Origin: a candidate division WWE3 bacterium RAAC2_WWE3_1 | GTDB lineage: Bacteria; Patescibacteriota; WWE3; UBA101185; UBA10185 | Assembly: GCA_000503835.1 (NCBI GenBank) | Contig: CP006914.1 | Location: 721,680 to 785,679 of the forward strand | DNA: 64,000 nucleotides | Direction of reading: 5' to 3' | Shown here: piece by piece, positions 5,626 through 59,495 of the stretch | How the letters are laid out: the number at the start of each line of letters is the position of its first letter | Numbering within the stretch: position 1 is the stretch's first letter | Notes under the pieces: model-generated | Databases searched by the model: none | What the model saw: only the letters and a program-made list of their open reading frames with translations | What the model was told of the DNA's origin: nothing | Program-made: the position numbers and the translations under genes

Positions 5626-5826
5626 TGCCTTCGGCAGACTTGCCGACAGGTAAGGCTGACGAAGCATTGCTGAAGTGAATTGGTTCGAAAGGCGCAGGCA
5701 CGACGGTACCGAGCCGGGGTCGACGGAATTCTCAGCAGAGAATTACCGGTGACCGAACCCCATAATTTGAGCTACGCGAGAATTATACAAGGAAGCGCAG
5801 CGAGTACTTGAGCGAGCAAGCTTTTA

Positions 5827-5838
5827 CTCCCTCCGCCA
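5827..5838 (+). repeat. 12-nt exact direct repeat of the tRNA-Ser 3' end (CTCCCTCCGCCA), 213 bp downstream of the tRNA
   Basis: Identical to 5614..5625. The intervening 200 bp is GC-richer and structured and contains a GGTTCGAAAGG T-loop-like motif. Confidence 0.5.
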
Positions 5839-35183: not shown

Positions 35184-35752
35184 CATGTGATCCGTTTGTT
35201 TCCAAACAGCATGGACTATCTCATCATCTTTTGTGTCACCACATTAAGATGTCGGGCGCTCTAGGGTGTAATCACCTAGTCTCTGCACCTTTTCATGTGT
35301 ACCCGGCAAGGCGTACAAATGAACTTGGCTCAGGATTACCATGTCCGTCGATTAATCGACAGAGTTAGGTTTCCCTGAGTTCACCCAATTTTTCAACCGT
35401 CGTTTCCGGCGGAAGCTGCACTACTCCGTTATGAATTTCCTTGTGACAGTTCGAACAGACTAAAACACATTTTTCAAGCTCTCTTTTAATTGTTTCCCAA
35501 CTTCTCGTTAGTCCGCGACTGGCGAGCCCGAAGTCTTTTTTCTGCCCATCTTTATGGTGAAACTCTAATGCCGCAAAGCATTTGTTATAACCACAAAGGT
35601 TGCATTTATTTCCAAGGTACTCGACTGCCAGCATTTTCAGTTTTCGTCTTCTCTTAGAGACAGCGAGACTGAGATAGCGGGGTCTGTCTGAGTACCTTCG
35701 GGTTTCCTTCGTCACAAGATATTTATATAACTTTCATAACGGTTGTCAACGT
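35184..35752 (-). other. tRNA intron (group I-like, inferred) carrying an HNH endonuclease ORF
   Basis: Lies between the two tRNA-Asn exons. Contains CDS 35365..35715 on the same strand. The secondary structure was not verified. Confidence 0.45.
35365..35715 (-). CDS. HNH homing endonuclease
   Basis: CNLCGYNKC...EFHHKDGQKKD...CSNCHKEIHNG. Canonical HNH motif with zinc-binding Cys pairs. 116 aa. Confidence 0.7.
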   Translation of the reverse strand: MTKETRRYSDRPRYLSLAVSKRRRKLKMLAVEYLGNKCNLCGYNKCFAALEFHHKDGQKKDFGLASRGLTRSWETIKRELEKCVLVCSNCHKEIHNGVVQLPPETTVEKLGELRET

Positions 35753-42282: not shown

Positions 42283-42337
42283 CCTACACGTTGGAAGTTC
42301 AGCTTATTGTGACCTTGTCGGAGCTGCCGTACTTTAG

Positions 42338-42372
42338 GGGTGATTAGCTCAATTGGCAGAGCTCTCGTCTTA
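42338..42372 (+). pseudogene. partial tRNA: 35-nt duplicate of the 5' part (acceptor, D-arm, start of anticodon stem) of the downstream tRNA-Ile
   Basis: GGGTGATTAGCTCAATTGGCAGAGCTCTCGTCTTA is identical to 42461..42495, then diverges. No T-arm follows. Confidence 0.5.
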
Positions 42373-42460
42373 CGTTTGACGCTATAGTGAGCATCGCGAG
42401 CTATGGCTCAAAGGAAAGTCCTCGTGAACTTTGGTAATTTTGAAAAACCTGGTCTTGTGG

Positions 42461-42536
42461 GGGTGATTAGCTCAATTGGCAGAGCTCTCGTCTTATACAC
42501 GAGCGGTTCCTGGTTCGATCCCAGGATCACCCACCA
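42461..42536 (+). tRNA. tRNA-Ile(UAU)
   Basis: Acceptor GGGTGAT/ATCACCC, D-arm GCTC-AATTGGCA-GAGC, anticodon stem CTCGT/ACGAG with loop CTTATAC (TAT), T-arm CCTGG-TTCGATC-CCAGG, A plus CCA. Confidence 0.7.
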
Positions 42537-42590: not shown

Positions 42591-43466
42591 TTAAAGAGTA
42601 TCCAGTTCGGTCTTTTCCTGTTCACCGGTTCTGTCTATGTACTGAAGATACCTTTCGGTTGTGGAAATTCTTTTGTGTCCTGCAATTTTAGACAAGTAGA
42701 TTATGCTAACTCCGCTTGCTAAATGATGGGCTACAAAAGTGTGTCTTAGATCGTTGACCTTGGCTTTTTCCACACCGGCAAGTTTAAAGAATCTATCTAT
42801 GGTAGACCTTATATTTCTTATCAATAGGGGGTTGCCGGTTTTTGTGATGAACAGATAGCCGGAGCTTTTAACGATAGATCTTTCTTCACTCATGTATTTA
42901 TTTACCGCATCTATAACAGCCTTGTTCAAAGGAATGGTTCTCGCTTCTTTATTATTTTTCTTGGCAACAAAAAGATTTCCGTTAGATCCGGAAATAGTTA
43001 AATTCTCTGTTTTTATTTCTGCAAGTTCGGAAATGGTCACACCTGTCTGTAAAAGCATTTCGATCATTGCGTAAGTTCTAAGGTCATTTCTCGTCGCGTC
43101 TCTTAAAGCCCTGTACTCCATTTTGGTTAGGATTCTCGGAGCCTTGGTTTCGAGTTTAGGGTGTTTTAATCCAAGGGAAACATTTTCCGCAATTTCTCCC
43201 TCAGCGTGGAGGTATTTAATAAATGTTCTGGTGGCGTTGGTCTTTCTGGAGACAGATTTTAAAGTGTAGTCAGCATTAGCCAGTTTCTTCATAAAATCCT
43301 CTAAATGACCGAGCTTTATCTCGCTAACCAGGTTTACGCCCATACCGGATAGATGGGACAATAGTTGCTCAACGTCCTTGCTATAAGCTACAACGGTAGC
43401 TCCGGACTTGCCTTCGCTCTTAAGTTTTTCTACAAAGTTTTTATGCGCAGCTTCAAGATTCAGCAT
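42591..43466 (-). CDS. tyrosine site-specific recombinase (XerC/XerD-like)
   Basis: C-terminal catalytic region LRHTFVAHHLASGVSIIYLSKIAGHKRISTTERYLQ (R..H..R..Y). N-terminal SAM-like core-binding domain. 291 aa. Confidence 0.8.
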   Translation of the reverse strand: MLNLEAAHKNFVEKLKSEGKSGATVVAYSKDVEQLLSHLSGMGVNLVSEIKLGHLEDFMKKLANADYTLKSVSRKTNATRTFIKYLHAEGEIAENVSLGLKHPKLETKAPRILTKMEYRALRDATRNDLRTYAMIEMLLQTGVTISELAEIKTENLTISGSNGNLFVAKKNNKEARTIPLNKAVIDAVNKYMSEERSIVKSSGYLFITKTGNPLLIRNIRSTIDRFFKLAGVEKAKVNDLRHTFVAHHLASGVSIIYLSKIAGHKRISTTERYLQYIDRTGEQEKTELDTL

Positions 43467-57317: not shown

Positions 57318-57392
57318 GGCCTGGTAGCCAAGCGGCAAGGCAAGGGTCTGCAAAACCCTCATGCGCGGGTTCGATTCCCGCCCAGGCCTCCA
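57318..57392 (+). tRNA. tRNA-Cys(GCA)
   Basis: Acceptor GGCCTGG/CCAGGCC, D-arm GCC-AAGCGGCAA-GGC, anticodon stem AGGGT/ACCCT with loop CTGCAAA, T-arm GCGGG-TTCGATT-CCCGC, T plus CCA. Confidence 0.8.
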
Positions 57393-57495
57393 AAGACTAC
57401 GACGTACATTTTGTACGGCGAAGTTTTTGTGGTTTGGTAGGAAGAAGCGCCACGCGAAGCGGTTCGACTTTTGGTGCTATAGTAATCTATAGCTC

Positions 57496-57600
57496 AAATG
57501 GAACGTTCTCGAGCGGAGCGAGAGGTTGTTACTTTTTGTAAAGTAAATGGAACGTTCTCGAGCGGAGCGAGAGGTTGTTATTCCCGCCCAGGCCTCCAAA
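57496..57600 (+). repeat. tandem duplicated 36-mer (57496..57531 and 57545..57580) ending in a 21-nt exact copy of the tRNA-Cys 3' end (57580..57600)
   Basis: AAATGGAACGTTCTCGAGCGGAGCGAGAGGTTGTTA occurs twice. ATTCCCGCCCAGGCCTCCAAA is identical to 57374..57394. Confidence 0.6.
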
Positions 57601-57656
57601 AAAGTTCGGCAGGTATGCTGCCTGACGAAGTGTGTCGTCACGGGAACTATCGCTTT

Positions 57657-59495
57657 ATGACATCTAAAGAAATACTACAAAAATATATAAACTTTTATAC
57701 GGAGCGCGGGCACAAGCAAATCCCCAACGTTTCACTTATTCCCGAAGGAGACTCAACATTACTTTTCGTAAACTCAGGCATGTTTCCTTTAGTACCTTAC
57801 CTTTCCGGAGAGCAGCACCCTTTGGGTAAAAGGTTAGTAAATGTACAGCGTTCGTTACGTTTCGAGGACATAGAGGAAGTTGGTACGACGATAAGACACA
57901 CAATAGCTTTTCATATGATAGGGAATTGGTCGCTCGGCGATTATTTTAAAAAAGAACAATTGCCTTGGGCATACGAATTTCTTATCGAAGTATTAGGACT
58001 AGCTCCGGAAAAACTTTTTGCAACCGTTTTTGAAGGGGACGCCAACGCTCCGAGAGACGACGAATCCATAGCAATTCTAAAAGAAGTTTTTAAAAAATAC
58101 GGCATTGAGGCAAAGGAAGGTGAAAGGATCTTTTTATGCGGTAAAAAGGACAATTGGTGGCAGCGCGGTGACGCCGTAGGCGAGCTCGGAGGTCCCGATA
58201 GCGAGGTTTTTTATTACCTCGGCTCAGGAACCGGCGTAGGAAAATCCCCGACCGATAGTCCGGATGAATTTTTAGAAATCGGAAACTCGGTTTTTATGCA
58301 ATATAAGAAGACCGAAAAAGGTTGGGAGCCCCTTTCACAAAAGAACGTAGATTTCGGCGGCGGACTGGAAAGATTAGCCGTGGTTTCTCAAAATAAACAC
58401 GATATTTTCGAAACAGATAATTTCTGGCCTATTGTGGAAAAAATTGAGGAATTATCAGGAAAGTCCTATTCTTCCGACGACAGGACCAAGCGGGCAATGA
58501 GGATTATATCTGACCACATGAGAGCCGCGTGTTTGCTGGGAATGGACGGCGTACAGCCTGAAAACAAAGACCAGGGGTATGTTTTAAGGAGGCTGTTAAG
58601 AAGAATGGTGAGGTCGGGAAAAATTCTGGGAATTGAAAAAGAGCTTACTTCTTCTTTGGTAGACCCCGTTATAACTGCCGTGGGATGGCTTTATCCCCAA
58701 CTATCAGAGAGAAAAGAACAGCTTAAAAAAACCTTTACGGATGAGGAAGAGAAGTTCAGAAAAACCCTAACGAGGGGCTCAGTCATTTTAGAAAAAGCTT
58801 TGCTTAAAATCGGACACGAAGAACTCAAGAAGAAAACACTTAGGGAGTGGGCTCAAATGTCTTTTGATCTGTTCCAGTCCGTGGGTTACCCCGAAGAAAT
58901 TTTCATAGACGATCTTGAGGATAAGGGAATACTTCCGGACCATAAAGATTTTCACAAGGAGTTTTTAGCCGTATTTGACCTTCACCAGCAAAAATCACGT
59001 GCGGGAGCGGAAAATAAGTTTAAGGGCGGTCTGGCAGATCACAGTGAGGCGGTCATCAAATATCATACGACGACTCATCTGTTACAGGCAGCACTCAGGA
59101 AAGTATTGGGCGACCATGTGGGACAGTTGGGCAGCAACCTGACCGCCGAAAGACTGAGGTTCGATTTTTCCCATCATGGGAAAAAGATAAGTGAGCAGGA
59201 GGTTGCCGAGGTTCAGTCCATTGTAAACTCGATAATAAAGGAGGCGCTTCCCGTAGGTTTTATTGTTATGCCTAGAGAAGAAGCTGAAAGATCGGGTGCT
59301 CTCTACATGAAACATGAGACCTACCCTGACGAAGTTAAGGTTTATTATGTCGGAAACGATTTTTCTAATGCTGTTAGCAAAGAATTTTGCGGCGGACCCC
59401 ATGTGGCCAACACGGGTGAATTAGGTGAGTTCGAAATATATAAGCAGGAGAGTATCGGAGAAGGCAAACTTCGTATCTACGCCCATTTGAAATGA
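57657..59495 (+). CDS. alaS: alanine--tRNA ligase (short form lacking the C-terminal Ala domain)
   Basis: Class II catalytic core, then editing-domain HTTTHLLQAAL...CGGPHV motifs. Start at ATG 57657; the upstream in-frame region overlaps the tRNA-Cys repeat. Confidence 0.85.
   Translation: MTSKEILQKYINFYTERGHKQIPNVSLIPEGDSTLLFVNSGMFPLVPYLSGEQHPLGKRLVNVQRSLRFEDIEEVGTTIRHTIAFHMIGNWSLGDYFKKEQLPWAYEFLIEVLGLAPEKLFATVFEGDANAPRDDESIAILKEVFKKYGIEAKEGERIFLCGKKDNWWQRGDAVGELGGPDSEVFYYLGSGTGVGKSPTDSPDEFLEIGNSVFMQYKKTEKGWEPLSQKNVDFGGGLERLAVVSQNKHDIFETDNFWPIVEKIEELSGKSYSSDDRTKRAMRIISDHMRAACLLGMDGVQPENKDQGYVLRRLLRRMVRSGKILGIEKELTSSLVDPVITAVGWLYPQLSERKEQLKKTFTDEEEKFRKTLTRGSVILEKALLKIGHEELKKKTLREWAQMSFDLFQSVGYPEEIFIDDLEDKGILPDHKDFHKEFLAVFDLHQQKSRAGAENKFKGGLADHSEAVIKYHTTTHLLQAALRKVLGDHVGQLGSNLTAERLRFDFSHHGKKISEQEVAEVQSIVNSIIKEALPVGFIVMPREEAERSGALYMKHETYPDEVKVYYVGNDFSNAVSKEFCGGPHVANTGELGEFEIYKQESIGEGKLRIYAHLK

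Follow-up and report, generated by a model that had tools for sequence, protein, structure and literature searches.

In this work, we analyzed a 64,000-nt stretch of the genome of the candidate division WWE3 bacterium RAAC2_WWE3_1 (contig CP006914.1, positions 721,680 to 785,679; hereafter the window), in which the tRNA-Cys gene is followed by a second copy of its own 3′ end and then by alaS, the gene for alanyl-tRNA synthetase (AlaRS). The 206-bp segment delimited by these two 3′ ends probably represents a member, devoid of an open reading frame (ORF), of a family of cassettes that invade tRNA genes. The direct repeat of 19–21 nt is the junction repeat of an insertion, and the tRNA is preserved whole, its displaced segment being part of the cassette. 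The insert belongs to a family specific to tRNA genes, whose sites turn over among relatives, and it harbors a separate small nested element, module E, so far found only inside tRNA-derived sequence.

The intact tRNA-Cys(GCA) gene with an encoded CCA occupies positions 57318–57392 of the plus strand (ARAGORN; Rfam tRNA, 65.9 bits). The 21-mer ATTCCCGCCCAGGCCTCCAAA is found at 57374–57394 and again at 57580–57600, the copies being 206 nt apart, and the 36-mer AAATGGAACGTTCTCGAGCGGAGCGAGAGGTTGTTA at 57496–57531 and 57545–57580, with 13 nt between the copies. The alaS gene (57657–59495, plus strand, 612 aa; Pfam tRNA-synt_2c, 8.9e-109) lies outside the element, its ATG at 57657 being 57 nt beyond the second repeat copy. 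All these distances had been given correctly in a previous sequence-only reading of the same DNA. With up to three mismatches allowed, the 21-mer and the 36-mer each gave two matches in the window and none in 100 shuffles. The tRNA-derived portion of the repeat comprises 19 nt, from A58 to CCA (57374–57392 = 57580–57598), and the two A's beyond it may be due to chance, the flank being A-rich. The repeats enclose 185 bp, in which no conserved ORF was detected. Upstream of its conserved start, alaS has 53 further in-frame codons without a stop (57498–57656), running from an ATG at 57498 through the doubled 36-mer; judging by the relatives, this is probably fortuitous. Five independent assemblies (metagenome contig L122 and L151–L154, the latter being four further assemblies encoding the same AlaRS as the window) are base-for-base identical over the whole stretch, thus excluding an assembly artefact.

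Empty and filled sites at tRNA-Cys

The relatives of its AlaRS put the window in WWE3 (Katanobacteria), within the candidate phyla radiation (CPR, Patescibacteria). In L001, L002 and L028 (AlaRS 92–94%), as well as in L003 (79%), tRNA-Cys is followed by 5–60 nt and then alaS, and the tRNA 3′ end is single. The sequence after the CCA in these empty-site relatives, AGAATTTCGGCAGG, is homologous to the window sequence AAAGTTCGGCAGG that follows the second repeat copy (copy B). Because the relatives are empty and the flank beyond B is ancestral, the 206 bp at 57393–57598 (equivalently, 57374–57579) are, relative to these genomes, an insertion with the repeat as its boundary.

A homologous insert was found at the identical site in L004 (AlaRS 73%). 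At fourfold-degenerate sites of alaS, the window and L004 are 35% identical, which corresponds to saturation (55–63% vs. the closest relatives), and their alaS leaders cannot be aligned. About 80% of the insert positions do align, and the alignment ends in an unbroken ~70-nt identical run in which the 3′ part of E passes into the beginning of the tRNA copy. Neutral descent cannot account for an insert that is far better conserved than saturated neutral sites, so that it is either under selection or entered both lineages from a common pool.

A T-box or alaS leader, considered as a candidate for the segment, was rejected since the segment is absent in the closest relatives. In the empty-site relatives, alaS is probably co-transcribed with tRNA-Cys, and in the window it would be expressed via read-through of the hairpin that opens the cassette or from a start inside the cassette. 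The insert, which parts alaS from the usually adjoining tRNA-Cys, provides a natural experiment on tRNA-mRNA co-transcription. A separate observation concerns a close relative, L021 (LCBB01000010; 5940–5997), where the tRNA-Cys before alaS has lost ~18 internal nt from part of the D-arm and the anticodon stem-loop. It is not called by ARAGORN and is either a pseudogene or an assembly error.

Anatomy of the insert and of module E

The cassette starts (57393–57430, plus strand) with the hairpin CGACGTAC-ATTTT-GTACGGCG at 57400–57420, followed by AAG and by TTTTT at 57424–57428. L004 has the same first hairpin with a compensatory change (cgacgGac/gtCcggcg), a longer loop and the same T-run, and in the tRNA-Pro cassette of L118 a clear hairpin with T6 stands at the matching position. 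We infer that the hairpin and T-run at 57400–57428 serve as a terminator ending the tRNA-Cys transcript.

Then comes segment A′ (57431–57467, plus strand), which, as suggested by its sequence and the comparison with L004, is a decayed and internally deleted copy of the tRNA-Cys 5′ part. Its GGTTTGGTAGGAAG matches GGCCTGGTAGCCAAG of tRNA-Cys, and it ends in GCGGTTCGA, corresponding to the 5′ strand of the T-stem plus the T-loop, to A58. The terminal GGTTCGA (57461–57467) had been perceived in the sequence-only reading as a T-loop-like motif about 75 nt after the tRNA; the T-loop character stands, suggestively as the end of the decayed tRNA-Cys copy, and the distance is in fact 69 nt. The L004 counterpart aligns collinearly with tRNA-Cys (GGCTTGGTAG..TCTTGCAAA..GCGGTTCGA; shuffle p = 0.04) and retains TCTTGCAAA, the counterpart of the anticodon loop TCTGCAAAA; for the window A′ the shuffle p is 0.08. 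The likeness of A′ to tRNA-Cys is suggestive and is backed chiefly by its position and by the layout at tRNA-Pro and tRNA-Gln. The possibility that A′ and B together make a real tRNA was rejected, as ARAGORN gave a negative answer even at lowered stringency.

Module E (57468–57579, plus strand) is a double hairpin composed of CTTTTGGT, hairpin H, TCAAAT, hairpin Y, a 13-nt spacer and the second 36-mer. H (GCTATAG-TAAT-CTATAGC, 57476–57493) is extended by TTTGG/TCAAA into a long, bulged stem (TTTGG.GCTATAG / CTATAGCTCAAA), and Y (GGAACGTTCTCG-AGCGGAG-CGAGAGGTTGTT) lies at 57500–57530. The doubled 36-mers revealed by the repeat search span, together with their 13-nt spacer CTTTTTGTAAAGT, positions 57496–57580 of the plus strand; the spacer plus its flanks folds as a small hairpin, TTACTTT-TTGT-AAAGTAA. 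The doubling of Y is present in all five assemblies of the strain and missing from the otherwise homologous L004, which has a single 36-mer. The tandem duplication described earlier is, thus, exact, but it is a local, lineage-specific duplication of one hairpin of the module. The insert is closed by B (57580–57600, plus strand; repeat search), the exact tRNA-Cys 3′ end from A58 to CCA plus AA, which abuts the ancestral alaS leader directly. When E is subtracted, the Cys insert consists of the hairpin with its T-run and a pseudo-tRNA-Cys.

The folds of the insert gave z-scores of −3.1 and −2.7. Compensatory changes were found in the terminator hairpin, in Y (TTCTCG/CGAGAG in the Cys copy vs. 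TTCCCG/CGAGGG in the Gln copy) and in H (the Ser copy vs. the other copies), and the consensus fold of seven E copies contains an extended H stem of 16 pairs. Consensus promoter scans revealed no promoter in any cassette, and the terminator scan did not flag the hairpin at 57400–57420; the only sites flagged by these scans were hairpin Y and one minus-strand site. Rfam scans of the three window loci and L149, both at the gathering threshold and at E ≤ 10, matched only tRNAs and no T-box. As a side observation, the 3′ part of the module, TAGCTCAAATGGAACGTTCTCG (57487–57511), resembles positions 8–30 of tRNA-Ile(UAU) (42468–42490) at 18 of 23 positions, with a shuffle p of ~0.005 among 16 comparisons; suggestively at most, E itself may go back to a tRNA 5′ segment that was duplicated in inverted form.

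Sister elements and the wider family

ARAGORN detected five tRNA genes in the window (Cys, Ile, Ser and two Met). The two tRNA-Met genes bear neither partial copies nor a module of the kind seen at Cys, Ile and Ser. Comparison of the sequences following tRNA-Ser and tRNA-Cys, as proposed in the sequence-only reading, revealed the homologous module E in both, comprising H with the loop TGAGCNNNGCGAG, CAA-GGAA, a second hairpin and the tRNA copy. The match that reading saw between the Ser and Cys cases holds for the module but not for the spacing (206 vs. 214 nt), which ranges over ~60–215 nt in the family.

The tRNA-Ser(GGA) element (5626–5838, plus strand) comprises the cassette at 5626–5826, including E at 5762–5826, and the previously noticed tRNA copy, 12 nt long, at 5827–5838. 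The insert of 201 nt ends in H (CATAATT/AATTAT, loop TGAGCTACGCGAG), CAAGGAA and a Y-like hairpin, followed by the 12-nt copy of the tRNA end; the gene following tRNA-Ser is convergent. Among the relatives compared at this site (88% identity, neighboring ManC-like protein), L144, L146 and L147 are empty, and L145 and L149 bear a homologous Ser cassette without E, in which a 21-nt tRNA copy is uninterrupted; in L149 (2737–3051), two Ser cassettes stand in tandem. Given the state of L149 and L145, E of the window was inserted secondarily and divided the 21-nt copy into parts of 9 and 12 nt. A simple alignment of the pseudo-tRNA-Ser within the Ser cassette was not significant (p = 0.21), and it was recognized only through the comparison with L149. 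We also observed that the core of the Ser cassette (GGGTTCGAA ... GAGCCGGGGTCGAC ... GGTGAC + CGAACCCC...) resembles a T-arm split by another two-hairpin insert.

At tRNA-Ile(UAU), the element (42337–42459, plus strand) precedes the full tRNA (42461–42536) and is built of a 5′ copy, E and an AT-rich stretch. Positions 42338–42372 are an exact copy of tRNA-Ile positions 1–35 (35–36 nt) ending in the anticodon loop. The insert after this copy, 88 nt long, begins with E, namely CGTTTGAC, H at 42381–42407 (loop TGAGCATCGCGAG) and TCAAAGGAAAG; a conserved AT-rich promoter-like stretch, TTTrGTAATwTTGAAAA, lies between E and the full tRNA-Ile. The element is orthologous in L119 and L121 (relatives with ~81% DNA identity), decayed in L155–157 and absent from L158 and L017. 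In L155 (1385–1450), as well as in L156 and L157, the 5′ copy halts at TAGCTCAA and joins AGGAAAG of the module, which is consistent with the loss of H via a deletion between TAGCTCAA of the tRNA copy and TAGCTCAA of E. An extra 1.3 kb after tRNA-Ile in L121 turned out to be an ordinary membrane-protein gene and was discarded. Directly downstream of the window tRNA-Ile, on the minus strand (42594–43466), there is a gene for a Xer-like tyrosine recombinase of 291 aa.

A metagenome search with a specific pattern (H plus linker) returned 10 loci, 7 of them tRNA-linked: two from this strain, two at tRNA-Ile (L119, L121), two at tRNA-Pro (L118 and the partial L116) and one at tRNA-Gln (L114). The remaining three (L115, L117, L120), having neither a tRNA nor an extended stem, were treated as chance matches. 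The same specific pattern gave no match in viral contigs, where the general motif TGAGCNNNGCGAG..CAA..GGAA matched 33 times, close to the roughly estimated chance number, and was not used. In total, E occurs at tRNA-Cys (window, L004), tRNA-Ile (window, L119, L121), tRNA-Ser (window), tRNA-Pro (L118) and tRNA-Gln (L114). The tRNA-Pro locus has the Cys-type layout, with an identity block from A58/G59 to CCA, as in Cys. In L114, E is reversed relative to the tRNA and sits in the D-loop of a pseudo-copy of tRNA-Gln, followed by an exact ~21-nt copy of the 5′ end. The E copies of L004 (Cys) and L114 (Gln), which belong to different organisms, are identical at 66 of 73 positions.

The insertion positions of E fall at or beside loops: the D-loop in Gln, the anticodon loop in Ile, the T-loop in Cys and Pro, and the 3′ strand of the T-stem in Ser. 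In every case, the exact tRNA fragment is found outward of E and extends to a mature tRNA end. When 45 tRNAs, i.e., all those in the loci collected by that stage of the analysis, were screened, exact partial copies of at least 12 nt within 700 nt were found only at these loci and in L007, the only other match being a weak 11-mer in L030. The idea of a family of small tRNA-end elements, put forward from the sequence alone, is thereby supported, since end copies are present at Ile, Ser, Pro and Gln, presence/absence polymorphism exists at the Cys, Ser and Ile sites, and relatives without the segment are at hand. Its restriction to the 3′ end is not, as the copies at tRNA-Ile and tRNA-Gln (L114) are 5′ copies.

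E bears no terminal inverted repeats, its ends CTTTTGGT and GGTTGTTA not being inverted repeats of each other, and shows no target duplication of fixed length: the flanking repeats measure 12, 19–21, 22–23 or 35–36 nt, and 0–3 nt are repeated around E itself. These features distinguish it from miniature inverted-repeat transposable elements (MITEs) and repeats of the repetitive extragenic palindrome (REP) type, as does its confinement to tRNA-derived context. Short, non-coding, dispersed double-hairpin elements inhabit the mitochondria of Allomyces and other fungi. Like these and like bacterial REP/MITE palindromes, E is a short dispersed two-hairpin module at the borders of mobile inserts or in structural-RNA contexts. 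Of note, the apical loop motif of E, GAGC-NNN-GCGAG, in which two G-C pairs, tandem G-A pairs and a triloop might form, also tops hairpins, solitary or in tandem and with varied stems, at other WWE3 sites (e.g., just after groEL) in either orientation; examples are L020 8260–8345 and L007 11400–11440 and 5440–5480. It may be a lineage-wide REP-like or protein-binding hairpin.

Origin and spread of the cassettes

Cassettes of a similar layout that do contain a gene were found elsewhere in the CPR. In L123–126 and L138–140, tRNA-Met is followed by a terminator, a GIY-YIG gene and a pseudo-tRNA-Met split by GC hairpins, and in L136 a 5′ copy, a hairpin and a GIY-YIG gene precede tRNA-Asn. L127 (1–3771) consists of at least 10 tandem units that repeat every 368 bp, an 87-aa GIY-YIG gene in each of them overlapping a tRNA-Met that bears a 15-nt D-loop hairpin; ARAGORN calls most of the units tRNA (78 nt; 8 in the locus). 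In another WWE3 locus, L007 (2925–3419), tRNA-Cys is flanked on both sides by its own partial copies, and a small GC hairpin, TCCGCC-NNN-GGCGGA, is present three times. Downstream, a fragment of a decayed anticodon loop and a GC hairpin of 16 nt come first, and a 21-nt 3′ copy follows at 40 nt from the tRNA; upstream, the 5′ part is split by the same hairpin and followed by a 79-aa GIY-YIG ORF (PF01541, E = 2.6e-11), whose stop codon overlaps the start of tRNA-Cys. The GIY-YIG proteins of L123–126, L127, L136 and L138–140 are homologues of this L007 protein. The Cys and Ile layouts of the window match those of the ORF-bearing cassettes, i.e., tRNA, terminator, (ORF) and hairpin-broken pseudo-tRNA, or 5′ copy, hairpin, (ORF) and tRNA. 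By this analogy, the window elements look like gene-less relatives or derivatives of GIY-YIG cassettes.

Probably, the cassette acts by supplying a replacement 3′ end (57374–57392, the left repeat copy) that keeps tRNA-Cys whole and is followed by the terminator-like hairpin, the original 3′ end being displaced downstream to alaS as copy B. The first layer would be the cassette proper, i.e., replacement end, hairpin with T-run and pseudo-tRNA; the second would be E, of ~65–75 nt, which became lodged in the T-loop of the pseudo-tRNA and one hairpin of which is doubled in this strain. The existence of two layers follows from L149 and L145, which bear the Ser cassette without E, and replaces the single element implied by the sequence-only reading. 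A full tRNA together with an exact fragment, both conserved between species, could provide portable homology or attachment sites, and the cassette could therefore be copied into the empty tRNA gene of another lineage. The spread might proceed by recombination, with a nuclease (GIY-YIG) or a recombinase acting in trans.

Genes for tRNAs are classic landing sites of large mobile elements. Like the Cys cassette, tRNA-integrating prophages, integrative and conjugative elements, genomic islands and tycheposons (with attachment sites attL/attR) insert in a tRNA gene and carry the displaced segment; the direct repeat from the T- or anticodon loop to the tRNA end, presence/absence and tandem accretion are also shared with the window cassettes. 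The intact near-end tRNA, the partial far-end copy, a loop-to-end identity block and empty and filled sites bounded by the repeat were all found here, whereas an integrase of its own beside the attachment site was not found in the Cys cassette (185 bp, no conserved ORF). Known elements of this class are kb-scale, about 9–120 kb (PMC9897764), and encode an integrase, while the window-type elements have 120–215 bp and no ORF. Window-type cassettes also differ in containing the decayed part of a second tRNA along with the conserved double hairpin, and in some of them it is the 5′ half, together with a promoter-like stretch, and not the 3′ end that is duplicated.

Another relevant class is that of free-standing homing-endonuclease cassettes, exemplified by the seg genes in the tRNA region of phage T4. 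In 1994, Paquin et al. reportedly described a GIY-YIG element in the mitochondrial atp6 gene of Allomyces that brings along a replacement end of the invaded gene. In such cassettes, as in the Cys cassette, a selfish insert duplicates the end of an essential gene and leaves the original end as a fragment, and the CPR cassettes of the Cys-type layout carry a GIY-YIG gene just as they do. The window cassettes differ in having no nuclease gene and in targeting a tRNA gene in a bacterial chromosome.

The insert at tRNA-Cys might instead be the scar of a prophage or island that used the site from the T-loop to the 3′ end for integration via a tyrosine integrase and was then mostly deleted, leaving attL, ~185 bp and attR. 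A repeat from the T-loop to CCA is the classic identity block of tRNA-integrating elements (Williams 2002, cited in PMC9897764); partial tRNA copies are a well-known by-product of such kb-scale integrations (PMC9897764), and the tandem accretion observed in L149 is typical of attachment sites. Nevertheless, a scar is rather unlikely, given that the tiny size and the internal order recur at five or more different tRNAs, that two genomes with saturated neutral sites share the element (~80% aligned, ~70-nt identical run), and that independent random deletions would not leave one module every time. In addition, the Cys insert holds no integrase fragment, and the internal pseudo-tRNA 5′ part is unexpected in an attP arm. 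An origin on the spot is likewise unlikely: a tandem duplicate of tRNA-Cys produced by slippage or break repair would have decayed and gained palindromic filler without ever being mobile, the repeat being its remnant. The resemblance of A′ to a decayed duplicate, the doubling of the 36-mer, which shows that local duplication occurs here, and the erosion of the L155 Ile element by recombination between short repeats agree with it; yet the spacer after the tRNA does not come from the local flank of the empty-site relatives, the distal 19–21 nt are exact while the remainder decays, the cassette is present in L004 and not in closer relatives, and the supposed filler, E, is near-identical at unrelated tRNAs (66/73, L004 Cys vs. 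L114 Gln).

That the segment is a structured RNA of the host, such as a tRNA-like small RNA, a processing or promoter module of alaS, or a decoy of the tRNA end, appears quite unlikely, even though A′-E-B has CCA at its end and an acceptor-like stem, whose pairing survives a G-C to G-U change (GGC/GGT with CCAGGCC), shuffled sequences fold less stably, conservation of the element is strong in parts and uneven, and alaS requires some route of expression past the hairpin. The segment is absent in the closest relatives despite the same tRNA-Cys-alaS arrangement, and the module also stands behind tRNA-Ser, where the next gene is convergent, and in reverse at tRNA-Gln; moreover, no Rfam match (T-box included, E ≤ 10), no tRNA in A′+B by ARAGORN and no consensus promoter were found. 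A mini-array or guide RNA resembling clustered regularly interspaced short palindromic repeats (CRISPR), with the 36-mers as repeats and the 20 nt identical to the tRNA as a homing spacer like those of the homing crRNAs encoded by transposons, is brought to mind by the order of repeat, 13 nt, repeat and 20-nt match to the neighboring tRNA. This is very improbable, as L004 has one 36-mer only, the 13-nt "spacer", itself part of a hairpin, is too short, the copy at tRNA-Ile lies on the opposite side of the module, the sole match to a CRISPR repeat family falls on the tRNA itself and below the threshold, and no transposon or cas gene adjoins the element (the whole window was not screened for cas genes).

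Several points also weigh against an invading cassette. No enzyme able to move the Cys cassette was found inside or beside it, and a profile of 46 GIY-YIG homologues gave no match in the window or in any E-bearing locus. The window cassettes are linked to the GIY-YIG cassettes by architecture, not by sequence homology. The window's only tyrosine recombinase is the Xer-like one, which lies in the same syntenic position in L017, where the Ile site is empty, and in L155–156, where it is decayed; as a candidate driver it was set aside, being for this reason probably a housekeeping enzyme. Neither an excised form, nor a second genomic Cys cassette, nor polymorphism within the population was seen, all assemblies of the strain being filled. 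In statistical terms, A′ resembles tRNA-Cys weakly (p = 0.04–0.08), and no covariation was detected in the H stems within the pattern-selected set, where the search pattern itself biases the selection. The strong conservation of B (exact), the A′ ends and E also fits a host function of an A′-E-B RNA. Finally, a homing model would leave the intact tRNA targetable and does not account for immunity of the filled allele.

On a broader scale, one may tentatively picture the CPR as harboring undescribed selfish cassettes that colonize tRNA genes, with tRNA pieces serving as homology arms that are portable and independent of species. A minimal GIY-YIG nuclease of ~80–90 aa would be encoded by the autonomous members, and gene-less miniatures, three of them in the window, would be mobilized in trans; E, or GC hairpins in other lineages, would specifically invade loops of tRNA-like DNA and either mark or immunize the displaced copy or act as a cis site for the nuclease. 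Taken as a whole, this picture is possible but doubtful. The logic of bringing one's own gene end is encountered here in elements of 120–215 bp without any gene, and three of the five intact tRNA genes in 64 kb of a tiny CPR genome are affected, these tRNAs being assumed single-copy and essential. If the elements are mobile, horizontal spread between diverged genomes could rely on tRNA fragments as universal handles for recombination, a role would emerge for the many small GIY-YIG genes beside CPR tRNA and rRNA genes, and partial or hairpin-interrupted tRNA copies would have to be annotated with caution, as element junctions and not as genes. Searches of the accessible literature returned no description of ORF-less tRNA-linked elements of 120–215 bp, of module E or of CPR GIY-YIG/tRNA cassettes, which is not proof of novelty.

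Some further observations were made in passing. In L128–L133, the gene for another homologue of the L007 GIY-YIG protein (P0045, 164 contigs) lies ~1 kb downstream of tRNA-Ile(GAU)-tRNA-Ala(UGC) in rRNA operons, where it probably sits inside the 23S rRNA gene. In L136 (1782–3258), a large serine recombinase gene stands directly after the tRNA-Asn that has the GIY-YIG cassette, and a larger element may likewise use this tRNA for attachment. The window itself contains a sixth tRNA gene (35786–35143, minus strand), missed by ARAGORN, that is interrupted by a group I intron (35192–35472; Rfam, 90.3 bits). The intron contains an ORF, without a Pfam family, that shows by eye an HNH-like motif (..SNCHKEIHNG..). 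The 5′ exon of this tRNA is TCCCCTGTAGCTCAATGGTAGAGCGTCCGACTGTA, the 3′ exon ends in ..GGTGGTTCGAATCCACCCGGGGGAGCCA, and the anticodon is probably GUA.

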